Assembly: GCA_965218465.1 (NCBI GenBank)
Contig: OZ244623.1
Span: 2,959,549-3,023,548, forward strand
DNA: 64,000 nt
Origin: Acidobacteriota bacterium
GTDB taxonomy: Bacteria > Acidobacteriota > UBA6911 > RPQK01 > G965218465
Reading direction: 5' to 3'
Position numbers and translations under genes: made by a program. Below are positions 5,906 through 57,978 of the stretch, piece after piece (the first letter of the stretch is position 1; each line of letters opens with the position of its first letter). The notes under the pieces were generated by a model that saw only the letters and a list, made by a program, of their open reading frames with translations, had not been told where the DNA came from and did no database searches.

Positions 5906-7423
5906 ATGGGAAAACCTACTGGTTTCAGGGAATTCGATCGCAAAACCGTCGGTTACCGTGACCCTCTCCAGAGACTGAAAGACTTCGCCGAAATCCTGGC
6001 GCCGACCGATGAAGACCTGCTCCGCACACAGGGTGCGCGTTGCATGGACTGCGGCGTTCCTTTTTGCCAGTCGCACTGCGGATGTCCCCTGGATAATCTG
6101 ATTCCGGAATGGAACGACTTGGTCTATGAGGGTCGGTGGAAAGAGGCCTTGCACCGATTGCACCAAACCAACAATTTCCCCGAATTCACCGGCCGAACTT
6201 GCCCCGCGCCCTGCGAAAGCGCCTGTGTGTTGGGCATTACCGATCCACCAGTCACCATCAAGAACATCGAGAACGCAATTGTTGACCGTGGTTTCGCGGA
6301 AGGCTGGATTCAACCTGATCCTCCCCAACGGCGCACAGGGAAAAGTGTCGCTATTGTCGGCAGTGGACCTTGCGGTCTGGCGGCAGCAGCCCAGTTGAAC
6401 CAGGCTGGACACTGGGTCACCGTCTACGAAAGGGCTGATCGAGTCGGTGGCCTGCTCATGTATGGAATCCCCAACATGAAGCTGGGCAAGGATGTAGTGC
6501 AACGTCGAGTCGACCTGCTGCGCGCGGAAGGCGTGCAATTTGTTACCGGTATGGAGATCGGACTTTCGCGCTTCCCACCGCCGGCCACTGCGAAAAGATC
6601 CCGGGATGTCGAAACAGGAAAGCACCCGGCGCGATTGCTGGAACAGCATGAAGCCTTATTACTTGCCACCGGAGCAACCCGACCATTCGATCCGATCGAG
6701 AATTGCCCAGGACGCCACCTCAAAGGGATCCATCTTGCCATGGACTTCCTGACTCAAACCACCCGGAGTCTACTGGACTCCAAGCTGCGCGCCGGTAGCT
6801 ATTTGTCGGCAAGCAATCGAAAGGTGATCGTGATCGGTGGGGGCGACACGGGAGCCGACTGCATCGGCACTTGCCTGCGTCATGGCTGCTCCGGCATCGT
6901 CAATTTCGAGTTGATGCCAAAGCCTCCGGTGAAACGAAGCAGTAATAATCCGTGGCCTGAGTGGCCGCGTATCTATCGGGTCGAATACTCCCACCAAGAA
7001 GCCCGCCACCGGTTCGGAGAAGATCCCCGGTCTTTTTCCCTTTTGGCCAAGCGCTTCGAGGCCGACGACCAAGGATGGGTGCGAGGTGTGACCACTACAG
7101 AGGTGGATTGGTCCTGTCCCTCTTCAGTAGCGCCTTTCAGCGAGATTGAGGGGAGTGAACGGTTCTGGCCGGCCGATCTGGTCCTTCTTGCAGCCGGCTT
7201 TCTGGGGCCGGAACTTGATTTGACCAGGGGTCTGGGGCTGGAAACGCAGCGTCCTCGTTCCAACTGGGAGACATTTAAGGCTACCGTCCCAGAGTATTCC
7301 ACCAATGTCGAGGGGGTCTTTGCCGCGGGCGATTGCCGCCGCGGGCAATCGCTGGTGGTTTGGGCTATCCAGGAGGGCCGAGGAGCAGCCCGCGCCATCG
7401 ACAAATTTCTCTGCGACCGGTAA
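5906..7423 (+). CDS. gltD: Glutamate synthase small subunit (NADPH-dependent, FAD/[4Fe-4S])
   Basis: [13 protein letters not shown]... Cys clusters ([13 protein letters not shown]...CPAPCESAC), [14 protein letters not shown] dinucleotide fold, directly downstream of gltB. ATG 5906 with gggaag RBS. Confidence 0.93.
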
Positions 7424-7983
7424 ACCGGCTCTCGGCCCCACTTTGGCAACGGTCATAACAAGCGTCCTGACCCAAGGAAGACCGTAGTCGACATCAATGG
7501 GCTTTGAGTAACGCTCCCCAAAAGCCTCAGTAAGAACAACAACCTCGATCTCAGAGGTTTGCTGTGTTCATGCTGCCAATACGCCCTGATAAACAATTTC
7601 AAACTCTTTTCTTGATTCAACAGGATAATAATCGATTGTCAAGTTGGAATCTTGGAGGTTCAAAGATGATGAAATCATTTACTGAATGAGGTTTCCAGGG
7701 TTGGAATTTCTTGACAGTCAAGATAATTTTATTGTAGAGCTTGGAACACTGTTAGAAAGTCAAACACGACTTGTCTCTGAGGGGGAACCGACATTGCCGA
7801 AACTACGCCTGGAACCTAAGATCAAAGCCCCAATTACGGAAACGGAGTATGGTCAATACAAGGATCTGCTTCAAAAAGCGAAAGCGAACGCAGGCGATCA
7901 TCATGTTCTTGTTGATCTGGAGGAAGGTGAAAACTCCACCTATGTGCGCAAGGCGATCAATTTTGTTGCCGGGAAAGAAGGTA
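7169..7983. repeat. Direct repeat copy 1 (~815 bp, ~96-97% identical to 17734..18549): gltD 3' end + intergenic promoter region + 5' end of wHTH-protein gene
   Basis: By-eye alignment: homology begins at ccggccgatctggtcc (7169 / 17734) and ends at gggaaagaaggta (7983 / 18549). Scattered substitutions and one 1-nt indel, so not an assembly duplicate. Confidence 0.8.
7600..7796 (+). promoter_or_regulatory. AT-rich promoter-like region with TTGACA -35-like hexamer (7711-7716) and strong SD (gaggggga) before a TTG start; duplicated at ~18166..18357
   Basis: ttgacagtcaagataattttattgtagagc; gagggggaaccgacaTTG. Low GC relative to surroundings. The -10 element is not clean. Confidence 0.25.
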
Positions 7984-12910: not shown

Positions 12911-15900
12911 ATGACTCGGAAATTTTTCCGGATTTGGCTGGCAGTCATAGTCTCTGTGGGCGTGATCTCCAACGTGAGCTCTTCGCCCGTCCTTCCAGCG
13001 ACCCAACCGCCAGCAACCGTCGCCCAACAAGTCTCGAGCCGGAGCCAAGTTCAGGTATTGGACCGACTCGTTCGGGAGTATGCGAGCCTACCCGTTTTCG
13101 ACTTGACCCTTGCTCATCGCCACCAGAGCTTCGAACTTCAGTACGACCGGGCCTACTCGATCGCCCGGGAGATGCAGCAACTGGCAAACACAGCCGAGCA
13201 GTCTTTTCTGAGAAGCTACCCCACGACTCTGAACCGGCAGGAAATGGAAGCGAACGTCAGAATCCATGTTCTGATGGCCATCGTCGGCGCTCGGCTCGGC
13301 TATGAGGAGTTTTTCGAAAGACACCTGGAAGTCGCTTTGGATAGAATTCGGCGCCACTATGGCTACCGCGGTCGTGACGCACGGCTGGAGTTGAAAAAAA
13401 TCGCTGATGGGGGGTCAAGTATCGAAAACTCCTCCCTTGCGGACACGTTCTGTCGCCAGGCGAGTACGATTCTCTCGCAGCCCACCGTGGGGCATCCCCG
13501 CAATCCGCCTTCCTGCCTTTCTCCGGACCCGGAGCCGAGTTTCTTCGAGCGCTTGCTGAGAAATGCTGGCGATCCCAAAGAGCTGGTCTTCGACCGCAGC
13601 GCGAACATAACCAATCTCTCCGGGTTCGCCATCCGGGTAGCCAATTACGCCACGGCCTCGCCACAGTCGATTCTTTTCGCCAACGCGCTGACGAAGGTGC
13701 TTGCCGACCCTCTGGTCACGAACTGGTTCATCCGTTTCTACCGGGATCAGGCTGTCGACGTTCCGACGGTAGACAGGCGCATCCGTTCGGATGTTCCGTC
13801 GTCATCGGATCGGCAACAACCTCCTCCGCTCTATGCACAGCAAGGTCGGGTCAATATTCAATCGAGCGACTACTTCGTCGTCGACCGGGGTGATCGGCAG
13901 AAAATCGAGTGGCTAGGCCATGTCCGGAACCTTTTTGAGCTGAAGCAGCAGATCTCTATCAAAGTTCGGATACCGGTTGGTGAATATCTGGTTTATCCGA
14001 CTAGACAGGCCTTTCCAACAGAGTTCTCACTCAAGCCGAACCTGATCGTCACGACCAGTTCCTTCGAGCCCATGCCGGGGTTTGACCTCTATTTGAGTCC
14101 CTCGGAATCGAGTGTCAGCGTCGTCCCGAAACAGAAACCTGGTTCAATCAAGGCTTCTCTGTTCAAACCGGACTTCAAGCTCCTTCGTTTCGATGTTGGA
14201 ATTGACGACAGTTCAAGGGACATCAGTGGAGGCGTCGAGCTCCGACTATTTCACCGCATCAATCGCTACCTCGCGGTTCAAACTCAATTGGAAGGCGTTT
14301 TTCTCAAACACCACGACAACATCAACCCGCTCAACCCCCGGATTTTCCGCCGCGACTCTATTCCGTTTGAGAATTTCACAAGCCGTGAGGTCCAGTTCGA
14401 TATCGGTCCCGTCATGCGTTTCGACCGTTGGCAACTGGCGGTCATGGAGAGCTTTCGCCTGGTTAATCGCAGTGGCTGGGATTCTTCGGGAGAGATCGGC
14501 CAGTTCTTCTTCAACCTCGGTTATCTGATCCCTGCGCGGGGTCAGGTCGGCCTTTACGCAACACGTGCCAACAAACAAGAGTCGGTCGTGAATCGGGTGC
14601 GCCTCGAAACGACTCTCGTTGAAGAGATCTATCTCAGGGTCACAGATCAGATTGGAGTGAACTTCAATATTCACTTGGGAAAGGGTTTTTCCGTGGAAGG
14701 GGCGTTTGGCCATCTCGACACGATTCGGCGGAAAAATGCCTGGGGTGGGGTCGTGCGCACTTACCTGCCACCGATCTGGAAAAGGGTTCAACTGACGACC
14801 GAGTTCGGCTTCAACGAAGGCTTTGTTGCTCAGAGTAACAACTGGCGGTTCGGCGTAGGCCTTCGTTTTGGAGGATGGGGCCGGGCCGGGGGGCCGGCAC
14901 CTTCGACCGTGCTCGGCCGCTCGGCCGGGCCTGAACCGGTATTCGTACCCCGTGTGCGCTATGAGACTCTGACGCGAGTCGTGCGAGATGGGAATCGCAG
15001 GCCAGTGGCCGATGCCGGGCCCGATCAATTGGACTTGGTTCCGTCCGAACGGTTGCCGGGCGGAGATCTCGGGAGGAAGGTCGTTATCGACGGAAGCAGT
15101 TCCTTTGATCCGGATGGCGACGAGATCAGCTACGAGTGGACTAAATTGGACGACTGCCCTGATTCCATCACGTTCGAGGATTTACAGGGAACCGGATCGG
15201 TGGGACCTGCGTCGGCCGCCATCTCCTTCGCGATCAACAATGGTGAGAGCTGTAGTGTCCAGTTGATCGTCGAAGATAGCCTGGGGTTGAAGGGCGATCC
15301 CGACATCGTCCGGGTGTCGGTCCAACGGGGGCCTCTCCCGGTCATCGTCAGTTTCACCGCCCAACCGGCGACGATCCCAATGGGCGCGGAGTCGACGTTG
15401 AGCTGGGAAACCCGCGATGCGGAAACGGTTGAAATCACTAATGTTTCGAACTCGAGTACGCTTCCGGTCAATGGAAGTGTCTCCGTAACGCCCTCGGTCA
15501 CGACCACTTACGTCCTTTCGGCCTGCAACGCGGCGAGAGAGTGTGCGACAGCGCAGACCACCGTGGTCGTCAAGGCAGATTTGCCGGTCATCGTCAGTTT
15601 CACCGCCCAACCGGCGACGATCCCAATGGGCGCGGAGTCGACGTTGAGCTGGGAAACCCGCGATGCGGAAACGGTTGAAATCACTAATGTTTCGAACTCG
15701 AGTACGCTTCCGGTCAATGGAAGTGTCTCCGTAACGCCCTCGGTCACGACCACTTACGTCCTTTCGGCCTGCAACGCGGCGAGAGAGTGTGCGACAGCGC
15801 AGACCACCGTGGTCGTCAAGGCAGATTTGCCGGTCATCGTCAGTTTCACCGCCCAACCGGCGACGATCCCAATGGGCGCGGAGTCGACGTTGAGCTGGGA

Positions 15901-17095
15901 AACCCGCGATGCGGAAACGGTTGAAATCACTAATGTTTCGAACTCGAGTACGCTTCCGGTCAATGGAAGTGTCTCCGTAACGCCCTCGGTCACGACCACT
16001 TACGTCCTTTCGGCCTGCAACGCGGCGAGAGAGTGTGCGACAGCGCAGACCACCGTGGTCGTCAAGGCAGATTTGCCGGTCATCGTCAGTTTCACCGCCC
16101 AACCGGCGACGATCCCAATGGGCGCGGAGTCGACGTTGAGCTGGGAAACCCGCGATGCGGAAACGGTTGAAATCACTAATGTTTCGAACTCGAGTACGCT
16201 TCCGGTCAATGGAAGTGTCTCCGTAACGCCCTCGGTCACGACCACTTACGTCCTTTCGGCCTGCAACGCGGCGAGAGAGTGTGCGACAGCGCAGACCACC
16301 GTGGTCGTCAAGGCAGATTTGCCGGTCATCGTCAGTTTCACCGCCCAACCGGCGACGATCCGAGTGGGCGCGGAGTCGACGTTGAGCTGGGAGGTGCAAA
16401 ACGCGACCCGAGTGGACATCACCAACAGCCAAGACTTTGTACCATCCTTGCCCAGCACCATCCCGCTAATCTCCAGCGGAGTTGTGATGCCTTCGGCGAC
16501 CACGACCTACACGCTGACCGCGTCCAATGATGACGGAGCGACCGCATCGGCCCAGTTGACCGTGCTGGTTCTACCCGTTCTTCCGCAGATTCTGAGTTTC
16601 GCTGCGACTCCAACACAGATCCTGACCGGGGAGTGCACGACTTTGAGTTGGGAGACAGAGGGAGCAGATTCGGTCTTCCTTACGAATTTGACCTCCGGTG
16701 ATACTCCAATCGCCGTCAACCCGGACGACAGCGTGATCGTTTGTCCCACTCAAACGACGGCTTTCACTCTCACAGCGACGAATTCCGCAGATGAGGTCTC
16801 GACGGCGCAGGTGACGGTCTATGTCCAAGAAGACTTGCCTGTGATCGTCAGCTTTACCGCCAAACCTACTGACATCTTCCAAGGTAAGAGTAGTGAGTTG
16901 TGCTGGGAGGTGGAAAATGTAGAAAGAGTGTCCATTACCAATATCCCCAACGGCGACAACCTGCCCGCCATGGGATGCAAGACCGTCCAGCCAACGGGAA
17001 CGACGACCTATACGCTGACCGCAGTGGGTAATGGGGGCGTCGTCCAAGCCACGGCGACGGTGGTGGTGAGATCCACACCCTCGTTCCCATTCTAG
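12911..17095 (+). CDS. Giant (1394 aa) secreted repeat protein: signal peptide, predicted outer-membrane beta-barrel-like segment, PKD-like module, 7 Ig-like ~82-aa modules; candidate inverse-autotransporter-like adhesin
   Basis: Signal peptide MTRKFFRIWLAVIVSVGVISNVSS. Amphipathic alternating-hydrophobic stretch ~14100-14900 ending ...NNWRFGVGLRFGGW (aromatic-terminated, typical of a last beta-strand). VIDGSSSFDPDGDEISYEW PKD-like motif. Seven modules of pattern P.I.SF.A.P..I..G...TL.WE......V.I.N.......G......P..TTTY.L.A.N......A...V.V. Confidence 0.65.
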   Translation: MTRKFFRIWLAVIVSVGVISNVSSSPVLPATQPPATVAQQVSSRSQVQVLDRLVREYASLPVFDLTLAHRHQSFELQYDRAYSIAREMQQLANTAEQSFLRSYPTTLNRQEMEANVRIHVLMAIVGARLGYEEFFERHLEVALDRIRRHYGYRGRDARLELKKIADGGSSIENSSLADTFCRQASTILSQPTVGHPRNPPSCLSPDPEPSFFERLLRNAGDPKELVFDRSANITNLSGFAIRVANYATASPQSILFANALTKVLADPLVTNWFIRFYRDQAVDVPTVDRRIRSDVPSSSDRQQPPPLYAQQGRVNIQSSDYFVVDRGDRQKIEWLGHVRNLFELKQQISIKVRIPVGEYLVYPTRQAFPTEFSLKPNLIVTTSSFEPMPGFDLYLSPSESSVSVVPKQKPGSIKASLFKPDFKLLRFDVGIDDSSRDISGGVELRLFHRINRYLAVQTQLEGVFLKHHDNINPLNPRIFRRDSIPFENFTSREVQFDIGPVMRFDRWQLAVMESFRLVNRSGWDSSGEIGQFFFNLGYLIPARGQVGLYATRANKQESVVNRVRLETTLVEEIYLRVTDQIGVNFNIHLGKGFSVEGAFGHLDTIRRKNAWGGVVRTYLPPIWKRVQLTTEFGFNEGFVAQSNNWRFGVGLRFGGWGRAGGPAPSTVLGRSAGPEPVFVPRVRYETLTRVVRDGNRRPVADAGPDQLDLVPSERLPGGDLGRKVVIDGSSSFDPDGDEISYEWTKLDDCPDSITFEDLQGTGSVGPASAAISFAINNGESCSVQLIVEDSLGLKGDPDIVRVSVQRGPLPVIVSFTAQPATIPMGAESTLSWETRDAETVEITNVSNSSTLPVNGSVSVTPSVTTTYVLSACNAARECATAQTTVVVKADLPVIVSFTAQPATIPMGAESTLSWETRDAETVEITNVSNSSTLPVNGSVSVTPSVTTTYVLSACNAARECATAQTTVVVKADLPVIVSFTAQPATIPMGAESTLSWETRDAETVEITNVSNSSTLPVNGSVSVTPSVTTTYVLSACNAARECATAQTTVVVKADLPVIVSFTAQPATIPMGAESTLSWETRDAETVEITNVSNSSTLPVNGSVSVTPSVTTTYVLSACNAARECATAQTTVVVKADLPVIVSFTAQPATIRVGAESTLSWEVQNATRVDITNSQDFVPSLPSTIPLISSGVVMPSATTTYTLTASNDDGATASAQLTVLVLPVLPQILSFAATPTQILTGECTTLSWETEGADSVFLTNLTSGDTPIAVNPDDSVIVCPTQTTAFTLTATNSADEVSTAQVTVYVQEDLPVIVSFTAKPTDIFQGKSSELCWEVENVERVSITNIPNGDNLPAMGCKTVQPTGTTTYTLTAVGNGGVVQATATVVVRSTPSFPF
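15338..16358. repeat. Perfect tandem DNA repeat, 246-bp unit x4 (15338, 15584, 15830, 16076) plus identical first 37 nt of a 5th unit; inside the giant-protein gene
   Basis: Unit start ccggtcatcgtcagtttcacc recurs at an exact 246-nt period. Three minus-strand ORFs (15508..15753, 15754..15999, 16000..16245) have identical translations, confirming 100% identity. Diverged copies continue to ~17090. Confidence 0.9.
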
Positions 17096-17733: not shown

Positions 17734-17992
17734 TCCGGCCGATCTGGTCCTTCTTGCAGCCGGCTTTCTGGGGCCGGAACTTGATTTGACCAGGGGTCTG
17801 GGGCTGGAAACGCAGCGTCCTCGTTCCAACTGGGAGACATTTAGGGCTACCGTCCCAGAGTATTCCACCAATGTCGAGGGGGTCTTTGCCGCGGGCGATT
17901 GCCGCCGCGGGCAATCGCTGGTGGTTTGGGCTATCCAGGAGGGCCGAGGAGCAGCCCGCGCCATCGACAAATTTCTCTGCGACCGGTAAACC
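17734..17992 (+). pseudogene. gltD 3'-terminal fragment (last ~86 codons) within direct repeat copy 2
   Basis: [83 protein letters not shown] is near-identical to the gltD C-terminus. No 5' part present. Confidence 0.8.
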
Positions 17993-18549
17993 GGCTCTCG
18001 GCCCCACTTTGGCAACGGTCATAAAAAGCGTCCTGACCCAAGGAAGACCGTAGTCGACATCAATGGGCTTTGAGTAACGCTCCCCAAAAGCCTCAGTAAG
18101 AACAACAGCATCGATCTCAGAGGTTTGCTGTGTTCATGCTGCCAATACGCCCTGATAAACAATTTCAAACTCTTTTCTTGATTCAACAGGATAATAATCG
18201 ATTGTCAACTTGGAATCTTGGAGGTTCAACGATGATGAGATCATTTACTGAATGAGGTTTCCAGGTTGGAATTTCTTGACAGTCAAGATAATTTTATTGT
18301 AGAGCTTGGAACACTGTTAAAAAGTCAATCACGACTGTCTCTGAGGAGGAACCGACATTGCCGAAACTACGCCTGGAACCTAAGATCAAAGCCCCAATTA
18401 CGGAAACGGAGTATGGTCAATACAAGGATCTGCTTCAAAAAGCGAAAGCGAACGCAGGTGATCATCATGTTTTTGTTGATCTGGAGGAAGGTGAAAACTC
18501 TACCTATGTGCGGAAGGCGATCAATTTTGTTGCCGGGAAAGAAGGTATC
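17734..18549. repeat. Direct repeat copy 2 (see 7169..7983)
   Basis: See copy 1. Confidence 0.8.
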
Positions 18550-32381: not shown

Positions 32382-33356
32382 TTAGCCGGCTTCCAGATAT
32401 TCGACCTTCGCTTTTTGGGGGAAGAAACGGGCAACGAACACTTGTTGACAGTTGCGGCAGTGGCACGACACTTCCCGGTATTCGCCCGACAACGATTCTA
32501 TTGGCTGCGAAAAGTCCTGTTGGGTTATGTCGTGAGAGCGACACGTTTGGCAACAAATAAGCTTGGCAGGGATGGTGATGGGCGGGACTGGCTGGAGAGG
32601 GGCTTTGAAGCTTGGCCCGGTTTCTTGATTTTCCAATCGAGCGTCCGGTCCTTTGATTTCGAGGACCTTGCACATTTCGCGAATTCGGGAATAAAGCCGC
32701 TGTCCAATCCGTTCAGCCAAGTCGTGATCGGTTGGCGAACCGGTCCCGGGCGCTGGTCGTTGGGGACCAGGTAGAGTGCGGTTGGTGGTGAAGATAGATA
32801 ACTTGCTGGAGGTGTACCGGTAGTTGATGATGGTATGCACGGTTTCACGCACCCATTCGGTGGGCCGTCCGGTACCCAGGTCATCCCAAACCAGAAGATC
32901 GCAATTCATCAAGGGCAAAAGGACTTCACGCTCTGTTTCAGGGGCGCCGGGACCGTAGGAGTATTGCAATCGACGCAGCAGCTCAGTTTCGTCGACAAAG
33001 CGGGCTGTAATCTGTTTCTCCACAACCAAGGCTTTGAGTAAGGCTGCTGCCAGATGGGTTTTCCCCACACCGCAGGGGCCCATCATTAGCAGCCCCTGTT
33101 GGATCCGGGGGTGGTTCTCAACGAACTGGATGGAGGTTTTCAAGGCACTTTCCTGGCCTTTGTTTCGAGGGGCATAGGCGTCAAAGCCTTTGTCCAGGTA
33201 GCGGCGTGGGATTTCGGCTGCCTTAAGAAGCCGCTTTAATCGCAATTCCGCTTGACACCAAGCACACCGCTGGACACTGCTGATTTGGGTATCGTCGTCA
33301 ACGAGCCAGCCTATCCCTTGACATTGGGGACAATCGGCTAAAGCCTGGGTTGTCAT
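32382..33356 (-). CDS. DnaC/DnaI/IstB-like AAA+ ATPase flanked by N-terminal and C-terminal Cys4 zinc-ribbon motifs
   Basis: CPQCQGIGW...CAWCQ (N-terminal Zn ribbon), MMGPCGVGKTHLAAAL (Walker A), LLVWDDLG (Walker B), C-terminal CCQTCRSH...CHCRNCQ. ATG(33356) overlaps the PduO gene stop in ATGA. Confidence 0.6.
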   Translation of the reverse strand: MTTQALADCPQCQGIGWLVDDDTQISSVQRCAWCQAELRLKRLLKAAEIPRRYLDKGFDAYAPRNKGQESALKTSIQFVENHPRIQQGLLMMGPCGVGKTHLAAALLKALVVEKQITARFVDETELLRRLQYSYGPGAPETEREVLLPLMNCDLLVWDDLGTGRPTEWVRETVHTIINYRYTSSKLSIFTTNRTLPGPQRPAPGTGSPTDHDLAERIGQRLYSRIREMCKVLEIKGPDARLENQETGPSFKAPLQPVPPITIPAKLICCQTCRSHDITQQDFSQPIESLSGEYREVSCHCRNCQQVFVARFFPQKAKVEYLEAG

Positions 33357-33904
33357 CGTTGCCTGCCAGTTTTCCAAAGGACCTCGTTACCGCCTTGCGT
33401 GAAGTTCTCGAATCGGGCCAGCACGAAGAGCAGGTCGGAGAGTCGGTTGAAAAAGACCAGGAGGTCGTCGTTGATCTTTTCTTCACGCTTCAGCCCTACG
33501 AGCTCGCGTTCAGCCCGCCGACAAACGGCCCGGGCCACTTGTAGCATTGAGGCTCCCGCCGTGCCGGTCGGCAAAATGAAGGCCCGCAAGGGGGGCAGGG
33601 ATTCACTCAACTGGTCGATAAGTGTTTCTTGAGATTTCCAGTCGGCGGCTTCTATCCGTCGGGGCTGGATGCGACCTTCGAAACTGGTTGCCAGATCGGC
33701 TCCGGCCCGGAAGAGCTGATGCTGAAGCTCTTGTAGGATTGTCCCTACGCGGCGGTCGGCACAAAGAGCGTGAGCCAGTCCGAGTAGAGAATTCAACTCG
33801 TCGACGGTCCCATAAGCTGCGACTCGCAGTTGATCCTTGGTCACCCGTTCTCCACTGAAGAGTGCGGTCTTACCCTGATCTCCGGTGCGTGTATAGATTT
33901 TCAT
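33353..33904 (-). CDS. ATP:cob(I)alamin adenosyltransferase, PduO-type (MMAB-like)
   Basis: MKIYTRTGDQGKTALFSGERV...AAYGTVDELNS...RLSDLLFVLAR are typical PduO-type motifs. ATG at 33904; the track's 33916 is a TTG. Confidence 0.8.
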   Translation of the reverse strand: MKIYTRTGDQGKTALFSGERVTKDQLRVAAYGTVDELNSLLGLAHALCADRRVGTILQELQHQLFRAGADLATSFEGRIQPRRIEAADWKSQETLIDQLSESLPPLRAFILPTGTAGASMLQVARAVCRRAERELVGLKREEKINDDLLVFFNRLSDLLFVLARFENFTQGGNEVLWKTGRQR

Positions 33905-34002: not shown

Positions 34003-34266
34003 TCAGTCCCGTTGTTGACCTGCCGGCGCCAGCAGGGTTTGACGCAGTTGCCGGCGTTGGACCCGATGCCGGAACAACTCCTGCTCTGACACTGTAGCGA
34101 CCGGAACATGCCCGCCATAGAATTCCTCCAGTTGGGGAGATTCGGAGACATCTATTTCAATCAGTTGGAAGCCGATCTCATCACGCAGCGAATTCAGTAC
34201 CTCCAGGGCAGGCTGACAAAGATGACAACCTGGCCGAGTAAAGAAATTAATTTGAATGGGATCCAT
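34003..34266 (-). CDS. Glutaredoxin-like small thioredoxin-fold protein (CxxC = CHLC)
   Basis: INFFTRPGCHLCQPALEVL...IEIDVSESPQLEEFYGGHVPV matches glutaredoxin-family (DUF836/YruB-like) topology. Start codon 20 nt from the divergent Prx start. Confidence 0.55.
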   Translation of the reverse strand: MDPIQINFFTRPGCHLCQPALEVLNSLRDEIGFQLIEIDVSESPQLEEFYGGHVPVATVSEQELFRHRVQRRQLRQTLLAPAGQQRD

Positions 34267-34286
34267 GACTCAACTAAAATTGACAA

Positions 34287-34799
34287 ATGACGTATCTGTT
34301 TCGACTTGCCGTACTGATGCTTCCTTTGGGCTTGGTAATGGGTCAGTCTACCACTCTCAAGGTTGGGGACGTAGCTCCTGATTTCGAACTGATGAACCAC
34401 AATCGAGAGGTCGTCAAGTTGAGCGATTATCGAGGCAGCAGCAACGTCATTATCGCTTTTTACGTTTTTGCTTTTACCGGTGGTTGACGGACCGAGTTGA
34501 GCCGGTATCAGTCTGATATCGAGTACTTCAAAGAACGCGACACCGAAATCCTGGCGATTAGTGTTGATGCTCTACCCAGCCAGAAAAAATTTGCCGAGGA
34601 GCTGGGGGCTCAGTATCACTTCTTGGCCGATTGGCCTGATCGCAAGGTCAGCCGGTTGTATGGTGTGTTGTCCGAGCGTGGATTTGCCCGTCGAACGAGC
34701 TTTTTGATCGACAAACAGGGGATTATCCGGCGGATCGATTCGGGTCGGGACGCGATTGACATTGAAGGGATCAAGTCGAGCTGCGACCGACTCAATTAA
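34287..34799 (+). CDS. BCP/PrxQ-type peroxiredoxin with in-frame TGA (34485-34487) at the peroxidatic-Cys position; candidate selenocysteine peroxiredoxin (or inactivated gene)
   Basis: ...[14 protein letters not shown][TGA][27 protein letters not shown]... aligns with the BCP motif FYPKDDTPGCTTE: T-x-G-[C->U]-x-T-E. Same frame continues through the TGA; the track splits it into 34287..34487 + 34497..34799. Possible N-terminal signal peptide. Confidence 0.5.
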
Positions 34800-35089: not shown

Positions 35090-35521
35090 ATGAGTAGAAA
35101 GTATCGACATCGAGGGTACCAGGATAGCAGCGACGGGCGTGATCGTCCGCAACCGAACCGCTCCAGGTCGAGATCGTTCTCCGATCGTCCCCGTGCTCCC
35201 CGTATGACCAAATTCCAAGAGGTGTTTCGGTGCGCGTTGTGTGGCGCCAATTTGCCGGCCACTTTTGACGATATCTCTGTTGGTAGCCGTTGCCCTCGGT
35301 GTCGGTCAGCCCTGCACACTTGCAAGAACTGTGCCTTCTTTGATCCGTCCAGCCGTTTTGAATGTACTCAGCCGGTGACCAAGCGGGTTAGCGCCAAGGA
35401 CCAGGGCAACCAATGCCGTTTCTTTGAGGCCCGTACCACCGTAGAAAAAGAAGTGTCCTCTTCCAAATCACTCAATGCTGACGATGCCAGATCGGCATTT
35501 GAAAGGTTATTCAAGAAATGA
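35090..35521 (+). CDS. Small zinc-ribbon protein with Arg/Ser-rich disordered N-terminus; translationally coupled to etfB
   Basis: CALCGAN...CPRCRSALHTCKNCAFF...C..C (three CxxC pairs). N-terminal RHRGYQDSSDGRDRPQPNRSRSRSFSDRPRAPR. Stop overlaps the etfB ATG (ATGA at 35518-35521). Confidence 0.45.
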   Translation: MSRKYRHRGYQDSSDGRDRPQPNRSRSRSFSDRPRAPRMTKFQEVFRCALCGANLPATFDDISVGSRCPRCRSALHTCKNCAFFDPSSRFECTQPVTKRVSAKDQGNQCRFFEARTTVEKEVSSSKSLNADDARSAFERLFKK

Positions 35522-57343: not shown

Positions 57344-57648
57344 ACTTGCGTTGCACCAACGGGGAGACACAATAGTCGTGGCCAACGCACTGATTTGCGG
57401 GTACCCGCCAGTAGCTATTGCCGGCTGCGGGGAGAGATCGGCTACTCACGTCGCTGGCCGTAAGCCAACCGGCAATCCAATCCGTTTAAATACAAGAATT
57501 AGTACAAGCACTGCCCCTTGACGCCGAGCGGGGAGGCTCGGGGGATTGACTGATAGGTGGATGAGAGGAGCAAAGACTGGTTTGCCGCCGGAAACGGCTC
57601 AACGAGAATCTGGAAGACGGGTTGGGAGGTGGTGACTTGCGTGAGAAA

Positions 57649-57978
57649 GTGAGCCAGAAAACACCGTTACGAAGTAGCCAGTGGTTTGGTTTGACGGACC
57701 GCGACGGCTTCATTCACCGCAGCTGGATGAAGAACCAGGGGTTTCCTCACGACGTTTTCGAAGAGCGGCCTGTGATCGGCATCTGCAATACTTGGTCGGA
57801 GTTGACTCCTTGCAACCACCATTTTCGCAAGCTGGCTGAACATGTCAAACGTGGCGTCTGGCAGGCTGGCGGCTTTCCTTGGGAATTCCCTGAACACGTG
57901 CTGCAGGCCGATCGAGGAGTCGACCTCGATTTTCTGGTGGGCAAGAGCGGTACCCCCAGACTTCGGGAGTCACACTGA
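57649..57978 (+). pseudogene. N-terminal ~110-codon fragment of an IlvD/EDD-family (sugar-acid/dihydroxy-acid) dehydratase
   Basis: LRSSQWFGLTDRDGFIHRSWMKNQGFPHDVFEERPVIGICNTWSELTPCNHHFRKLAEHVKRGVWQAGGFPWEFP closely matches the N-terminus of arabinonate/xylonate dehydratases. Frame ends at 57978 and no continuation is recognisable downstream. Confidence 0.5.

Follow-up and report, generated by a model that had tools for sequence, protein, structure and literature searches.

How is a TGA triplet to be read when it falls exactly where a peroxiredoxin carries its catalytic cysteine? The question is raised by one gene in a stretch of 64,000 nucleotides from an Acidobacteriota bacterium (GenBank assembly GCA_965218465.1, contig OZ244623.1, positions 2,959,549 to 3,023,548 of the forward strand). 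The whole of this stretch is referred to below as the window, and coordinates are positions within it. An earlier note on this DNA had described a peroxiredoxin frame that is continuous except for a single TGA and had suggested that the codon specifies selenocysteine (Sec). We predict, with a probability of about 0.9, that the TGA truly specifies Sec, and that it does so at the catalytic residue of a peroxiredoxin of the AhpE type. The gene and its catalytic residues are located as follows.

34287-34799, plus strand: AhpE-like peroxiredoxin coding sequence, 170 codons including Sec67, then TAA.
34476-34487, plus strand: active-site motif T-G-G-U, Thr64 to Sec67, of the TxxU type; the Thr, the Gly and the TGA are invariant in 31 of 31 Sec forms (30 orthologous TGA loci plus the window).
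34485-34487, plus strand: UGA, predicted Sec codon, residue 67, at the peroxidatic position and opposite the peroxidatic Cys of AhpE.
34692-34694, plus strand: codon of Arg136, the peroxiredoxin active-site Arg, invariant in orthologue alignments A1 and A3 and opposite the Arg of AhpE ANRGTF.

The TGA at codon 67 is the lone internal stop in the translation of 34287-34799. As the earlier note had it, the two halves stand in one frame and together make a complete peroxiredoxin of about 170 amino acids; the count is 170 codons. When Cys is put at codon 67, the Pfam domain AhpC-TSA (PF00578) matches residues 26-149, across the TGA, with E = 6.9e-34 and 116.9 bits against a cutoff of 26. A phmmer alignment with AhpE of Mycobacterium tuberculosis sets the TGA opposite the peroxidatic Cys (FFPLAFTGIC in AhpE), and this alignment, together with a TGC codon at the same place in seven orthologous loci, bears out the claim that the TGA occupies the catalytic Cys position of a peroxiredoxin. 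By our reading of the alignment, Arg136 would be the equivalent of AhpE Arg116. The peroxiredoxin triad of Thr64, Sec67 and Arg136 is invariant across the orthologues. TGA is also the normal stop of 26 of the 41 genes in the window, including the glutaredoxin-like neighbour of the peroxiredoxin gene, and therefore the codon has not been reassigned. A scan of the window for further candidates with an in-frame TGA gave 118 pairs of open reading frames (ORFs), among which, by eye, only the peroxiredoxin has a redox motif at the TGA.

Is the TGA really there, and is it there in other species? Five assemblies made independently for the same species, four from ENA and one a Logan run assembly, have the split gene, annotated as ORFs of 66 and 100 amino acids, and the 100-residue C-terminal ORF is identical in sequence on the contigs of all five. 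These assemblies include a circular contig of 3,193,430 bp at 50x (ERZ25067264:ctg836578_50x_c), and their coverage labels range from 10x to 50x. When four of the same-species assemblies were compared base by base, the TGA was kept in each, with 1-3 nucleotide differences from the window within the gene.

Outside the species, about 16 clusters of "C-terminal halves", 100-102 residues long and at 60-95% identity, came up in a word-indexed protein search, along with two full-length Cys forms, P0001 and P0002 (FFPLAFTSGCRTEL). A third full-length orthologue call, P0003 (ENA/metaclust), has Trp at the TGA; its caller had translated an Acidobacteriota contig with a TGA=Trp code. Orthologues were then sought in one genome per GTDB species, which gave 37 loci, all of them in Acidobacteriota. 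The records OZ240092.1, OZ252114.1 and OY760074.1 are among the carriers of orthologues. Codon 67 is TGA in 30 of these loci and TGC in the other seven, with no other codon at any of them, and this Sec/Cys pairing is what the earlier note had proposed to look for by alignment with Cys orthologues. All 37 continue in the same frame, with neither a second stop nor a frameshift at any locus, so the pseudogenised relatives that the note had said would speak against its proposal did not appear. The TGA-form species share 43-75% protein identity. A codon-by-codon comparison found residues conserved and synonymous sites freely variable on both the 5' and the 3' side of the TGA (for example, Val-13, Gly-1 and Pro+30, counted from codon 67, use four codons each). 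Therefore, both halves are translated as one protein that is under purifying selection.

If the UGA is read as Sec, the mRNA should carry a bacterial selenocysteine insertion sequence (bSECIS) within the coding sequence. The earlier note had seen by eye a weak 4-bp stem after the TGA. The fold of the 76 nucleotides from the TGA instead gives a conserved 8-bp hairpin:

34503-34521, plus strand: bSECIS-like hairpin core, CGGUAUCA / GUC / UGAUAUCG, with an 8-bp stem and a 3-nt apical loop whose first base, at 34511, is G.

The hairpin begins 15 nt 3' of the UGA, and in the window its stem continues with bulges over 34498-34530. It stands in the same register in all of the TGA forms, with GUC, GGA or GGC as the loop. 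In the 31-sequence alignment 95.4% of the cells are paired, a share that drops to 10-48% if the 3' arm is displaced by 1-3 columns, and RNAalifold recovers the hairpin helix from the alignment. Most of the pairs are invariant, which by itself is little evidence; what is decisive is the position of the invariance. The conserved hairpin codons (+7, +8, +10 and +11) are UAU in 30 of 31, CAG in 31 of 31, GAU in 30 of 30 and AUC in 29 of 30 sequences, and their synonymous entropy is 0-0.21 bit, compared with a minimum of 0.37 and a median of 1.07 bit in 36 other conserved codons (Mann-Whitney U = 0, p = 6e-4). Similarly, Arg+6 is encoded solely by CGG or CGA, the third base of which is able to pair with U35, while CGC and CGU are used for Arg elsewhere in the gene. 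Among 20,000 synonymous recodings that kept the window peptide and codon usage, just 1.3% give as good a fold, and all eight pairs survive in 2.4%.

A distant and a near comparison agree with this pattern. The TGA form of a member of the Bryobacteraceae (L041), 47% identical, has the hairpin at the same place with a GUC loop and two compensatory pairs, and it keeps the hairpin despite a different peptide (YQSGLA versus YQSDID). Six neighbouring Cys forms have no comparable hairpin, and the nearest Cys form (L015), which is nested among the Sec forms in the tree described below, has lost both the stem base and, through a change of CAG to CAA, the G of the loop.

How does this hairpin compare with known elements? 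The bSECIS consensus of Zhang and Gladyshev, as summarised in PMC13188914, has a loop of 3-9 nt, a stem of 4-16 bp, a G in the first two loop positions that is usually followed by G or U, 16-37 nt between the UGA and the loop, and a minimum free energy of -7.5 kcal/mol or lower. The window hairpin lies within all of these published constraints, with a 3-nt loop, an 8-bp stem, GU at the start of the loop (GG in other clades), 23 nt from the UGA to the loop and a minimum free energy of -9.8 kcal/mol. Like the bSECIS elements whose prototype is E. coli fdhF, it is a stem-loop inside the coding sequence just 3' of the UGA with a small G[U|G] loop; it differs from the consensus type in having a loop of the minimum allowed size and in matching no Rfam SECIS model. 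Judged from sequence, then, the gene has the marks that are expected of a selenoprotein gene: a Sec/Cys pair, orthologues with TGA, a bSECIS-like hairpin, and UGA used otherwise as a stop.

Several observations weigh against the Sec prediction. One of them concerns the active-site motif, stated in PMC13188914 as PxxxTxxC/U with a conserved Pro, which the window protein lacks:

34464-34466, plus strand: codon of Val60, in the place of the Pro of PxxxTxxC/U.

At this position the Sec forms have Val in 26 of 31, Ala in one and Pro in four, and the Cys forms have Pro in seven of seven, a correlation with Sec and Cys that is confounded by phylogeny. The support that comes from the hairpin is mostly invariance and frozen synonymous sites, with the compensatory changes coming from L041 alone. 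There was no Rfam SECIS match, either at gathering thresholds over the window or at permissive E-values over 34440-34600. The Rfam models of bacterial SECIS elements are lineage-specific, and in our view this null result is uninformative for such elements.

The remaining adverse observations concern the Sec machinery. Neither selA, selB, selD nor a tRNA-Sec was found within the 64-kb window. ARAGORN predicted no tRNA there at all, tRNA-Sec included, and the 52 ORFs selected as candidate genes, which do not overlap and encode at least 90 amino acids each, contain, to judge from Pfam scans or precomputed annotation, no SelA, SelB or SelD, nor any thioredoxin, DsbD or CcdA-type partner. When the contigs carrying SelB variants were compared with those carrying the peroxiredoxin fragments, none was in common among the members listed. 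Queries with genes from the edges of the window matched no record exactly that would carry the sequence further. The phylum itself is not foreign to selenium: Acidobacteria were credited with selenoproteins in the 2006 phylum counts (PMC1794560), and the supplement of that paper holds Solibacter usitatus sequences that include an fdhA with U and a SelB. A word-indexed search with the S. usitatus SelB returned Solibacter-like matches alone, at 74% identity or more; further searches were made exhaustively over representatives and with an Acidobacteriota SelB (P0252) as query. SelB of full architecture proved abundant in Acidobacteriota metagenome-assembled genomes (MAGs), and its carriers include circular genomes of 5.25 Mb and 5.52 Mb among the ENA assemblies with the same style of contig naming.

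Could the TGA be something other than a Sec codon? The two alternatives that the earlier note had named, a nonsense-inactivated gene and a base-call error, are both opposed by the five assemblies, the 30 TGA species and the purifying selection. A decaying pseudogene, in which the TGA has disabled a former Cys codon, would explain why the TGA is one substitution away from a Cys codon, why gene callers split the gene into ORFs of 66 and 100 amino acids and why the window is without sel genes. It is nevertheless highly improbable, since 30 species whose proteins are 43-75% identical have the same TGA and neither another stop nor a frameshift, both halves have conserved residues over variable synonymous sites, and the TGA is accompanied by a constrained RNA hairpin that the Cys forms have lost. 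That a true TGC or TGT was turned into TGA by sequencing or assembly is harder still to believe: the prior probability of single-base errors is all that speaks for it, and the error would have to have arisen independently in each of the five assemblies of this species, of which the four compared differ from the window elsewhere in the gene, and again in 30 other species.

If the TGA is genuine and the gene intact, the cell might still make two products from it, a 66-residue N-terminal peptide and a 100-residue C-terminal protein starting at TTG 34497, which is how gene callers annotate the locus in all of the public assemblies examined. However, this putative start is the Leu codon (+4) of a conserved TEL and is TTG, CTG, TTA, CTA, CTT or CTC depending on the species, the TGA lies inside both the Pfam match and the AhpE alignment so that neither fragment holds a whole peroxiredoxin domain, and the C-terminal piece would be without the catalytic residue; we give this explanation next to no credence. 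Recoding without selenium, either by a near-cognate Trp or Cys tRNA whose read-through is stimulated by the hairpin or by insertion of Cys through the Sec pathway, must be taken a little more seriously, and we consider it unlikely. It could draw on the Sec machinery not having been found for the source genome (in the 64-kb window and in the contig cross-match among the members listed) and on the Trp called in P0003, although the latter is an artefact of the genetic code that the caller used. Against it, an enzyme with Trp in the peroxidatic place would be catalytically dead, and Cys is the one residue with which the codon alternates among the orthologues. The hairpin, G[U|G] loop included, conforms to the consensus for bSECIS elements of the SelB type. 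More genes of the window end in TGA than in any other stop, and SelB is common in Acidobacteriota. We therefore retain the reading of the TGA as a Sec codon.

To which kind of peroxiredoxin does the predicted protein belong? The earlier note had called it a BCP-type enzyme. In a phmmer search the best PDB sequence matches are all M. tuberculosis AhpE, with E = 1.8e-26 compared with 8.5e-20 for the best BCP. The scores against the NCBIfam models BCP (NF006960; 68 bits, cutoff 140), PrxQ (NF053650; 37.1 bits, cutoff 260) and peroxi_PrxU (NF040737; 56.3 bits, cutoff 270) all fall short, Prx-SUH is likewise far below, and no NCBIfam model reaches its cutoff on this protein. The AlphaFold (AF2) model of the Cys orthologue P0001, in which the predicted local distance difference test score is above 95 over the domain, matches AhpE in Foldseek with a TM-score of 0.90-0.92, a root-mean-square deviation of 1.5-1.7 A and 41% identity. 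The window sequence and the modelled fold of P0001 thus point to the AhpE-like subfamily. The BCP/PrxQ assignment was rejected, as its models score below cutoff and the BCP match in the PDB has an E-value about six orders weaker than that of AhpE.

AhpE (Rv2238c; PDB 1XVW, 1XXU and 4X1U) is the nearest solved relative and shares with the window protein the motif AFTGxC(U)xxEL and the active-site Arg. It has Cys and the motif Pro where the window protein has Sec and Val and, unlike the window clade, it has neither an N-terminal extension nor a C-terminal Cys. AhpE is reduced by mycothiol and mycoredoxin, a system that to our knowledge is not to be expected in Acidobacteriota. With BCP/PrxQ the protein has in common the general peroxiredoxin fold and a small monomer, and after AhpE the best structural matches are to Bcp1 and Bcp4 of Sulfolobus; it differs in lacking a Cys at Cp+5, where Ser72 stands. 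Sec-containing peroxiredoxins are, as the earlier note had remarked, established bacterial selenoproteins: the TxxU peroxiredoxins are an experimentally verified family (PMC13188914), with PrxU of Eubacterium acidaminophilum as the prototype (Sohling et al. 2001, as cited in PMC13188914). The window protein shares with that family the AhpC/TSA fold, Sec in place of the peroxidatic Cys, a UGA with an in-frame bSECIS-like hairpin, and Cys orthologues. It is no orthologue of PrxU, from which it differs in being AhpE-like, in having Val for the motif Pro, a signal-like N-terminus and a C-terminal Cys, and in occurring in Acidobacteriota.

The two ends of the protein hold its other distinctive features:

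34287-34343, plus strand: predicted N-terminal signal peptide of 19 residues, then QS; predicted from sequence features.
34782-34784, plus strand: codon of Cys166, candidate resolving Cys in the C-terminal helix, invariant in alignment A1.

The N-terminal extension has a basic residue, a hydrophobic core (the maximum Kyte-Doolittle mean over 10 residues is 2.54) and small residues at -3 and -1. Nearly all of the orthologues have an extension of 25-42 residues, likewise with a basic residue and a hydrophobic core, that ends in an AxS/AxA-like or a lipobox-like sequence, for example SPLAWS|QS or LFYGC. AhpE has no such extension, nor do the second Sec paralogues described below (L033 and L034). 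These features suggest that the peroxiredoxin is exported to the periplasm or anchored in the membrane.

As to the other end, the earlier note had seen no second (resolving) Cys near the TGA. This is correct locally, but it overlooks the distal Cys166, which is present in 37 of 38 full-length forms, Sec and Cys forms alike, and is replaced by Ser in one (L012). This Cys is absent from the actinobacterial AhpE-like consensus, and in the AF2 model of P0001 it lies within the last helix. In human PRDX5 the resolving Cys is likewise in the C-terminal helix. By this analogy we infer that Cys166 may resolve the selenenic acid through an Se-S bond.

The following mechanism can be proposed. During translation the UGA at 34485-34487 would not be read as a stop. 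The hairpin at 34503-34521 would serve as the bacterial SECIS and would presumably recruit SelB.GTP.Sec-tRNA(Sec), with insertion of Sec at residue 67. The peroxidatic centre would consist of Sec67, Thr64 and Arg136, and its selenolate would reduce a hydroperoxide and become a selenenic acid. The latter would probably be resolved by Cys166 to give a selenenylsulfide, which could then be reduced by a thiol-disulfide oxidoreductase. The hydrophobic N-terminal extension would direct export to the periplasm or anchoring in the membrane.

How are Sec and Cys distributed among the orthologues? In a neighbour-joining tree the window groups with 29 species in a single large Sec clade, within which the lone Cys form L015 is nested, and a Bryobacterales clade of Cys forms includes one Sec form, L041. 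A dynamic exchange of Sec and Cys has been described for peroxiredoxins (PMC1794560), and the pattern of the tree is consistent with it. Two MAGs have two TGA paralogues each, L016 and L034 in JAYZBY01 and L017 and L033 in JAPYTY01. The second Sec paralogues, L033 and L034, are without the hydrophobic N-terminal extension and stand in another gene neighbourhood, and their sequences suggest that each pair consists of one exported and one cytoplasmic selenoperoxiredoxin.

A wider proposal is tentative, and we place it somewhat on the doubtful side of even. It holds that these proteins form a distinct, unannotated Acidobacteriota clade of exported (periplasmic or lipid-anchored) AhpE-type selenoperoxiredoxins with the motif VxxxTxxU without the motif Pro. 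Members of the clade would form an intramolecular selenenylsulfide through the Cys of the C-terminal helix, would be reduced by extracytoplasmic thiol-disulfide exchange rather than by the cytoplasmic glutaredoxin-like neighbour, and would interconvert Sec and Cys, with decay of the SECIS after conversion to Cys.

The neighbour just mentioned brings up the question of a reducing partner:

34003-34266, minus strand: glutaredoxin-like gene (Glrx-like, DUF836) with a CHLC (CxxC) motif, Pfam E = 7.4e-16, starting 20 nt from the peroxiredoxin ATG.

The earlier note was right that a CxxC glutaredoxin-like gene lies divergently 20 nt away, but its reading of this gene as a plausible reductant partner has to be downgraded. 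The gene adjoins the peroxiredoxin in 10 of 28 syntenic loci, or in 11 of 29 genomes when the window is included, and the protein has no hydrophobic, signal-like N-terminal extension. For these two reasons a role as dedicated reductant is weakly supported. The other 18 syntenic loci have no glutaredoxin-like match, and in 17 of these a gene for cob(I)alamin adenosyltransferase matches upstream.

The gene order around the peroxiredoxin is conserved as a block. It begins with a DnaC/IstB-like ATPase, continues with the cob(I)alamin adenosyltransferase and/or the glutaredoxin-like gene and then the peroxiredoxin, and is followed 3' by a Cys-rich ORF of 143 amino acids and by genes for electron transfer flavoprotein (ETF) beta, ETF-alpha and acyl-CoA dehydrogenase. 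The Cys-rich ORF (35090-35521, plus strand) has several CxxC pairs and no Pfam match, overlaps the start of ETF-beta by 4 nt and adjoins the peroxiredoxin in 27 related loci; it may encode a zinc-ribbon protein that is coupled to ETF. The DnaC/IstB-like ATPase (32382-33377, minus strand) has Cys-rich N- and C-terminal segments. Because it is syntenic with the peroxiredoxin in almost all of the related genomes, it is probably a housekeeping gene and not part of an IS21 element.

A scan for promoters and terminators around the peroxiredoxin gene gave nothing better than chance. A sigma-70-like sequence, TTGAAT-17-TAAAAT, is present at 34252-34280 on the plus strand and ends 6 nt 5' of the peroxiredoxin ATG; it would imply a near-leaderless mRNA, and such sites are no more frequent than in shuffled sequence.

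Some other features of the window lie apart from this gene. An 815-bp direct repeat of 98% identity (7169-7983 and 17735-18547) flanks about 10.5 kb that contain several ORFs without a Pfam match and a repeat protein of 1394 amino acids; the pair may have arisen by duplication or may mark the two ends of an inserted element. The ORF of the repeat protein (12911-17095), which also has no Pfam match, contains at least four near-identical tandem units of 246 nt (82 amino acids) at 15338-16375. Finally, an ORF of 118 amino acids (57622-57978, plus strand) matches just the first 45 positions of ILVD_EDD_N, the N-terminal domain of dihydroxy-acid dehydratase, and is probably a gene remnant.

What, then, would a Sec codon at this locus mean? 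The kinds of selenoprotein known stay unchanged, because Sec-containing peroxiredoxins have been established since 2001. The finding is that a conserved antioxidant selenoenzyme, present by this prediction in at least 30 Acidobacteriota species, is invisible to current annotation, because the public gene calls split the gene in every assembly examined and no NCBIfam model reaches its cutoff. Its recognition widens the known use of selenium in Acidobacteriota, and its sequence points to a selenoperoxidase that would act outside the cytoplasm. The orthologues also provide a clean natural series of Sec and Cys forms, in which a change to Cys is followed by loss of the SECIS, as material for asking why selenium stays at the peroxidatic site.

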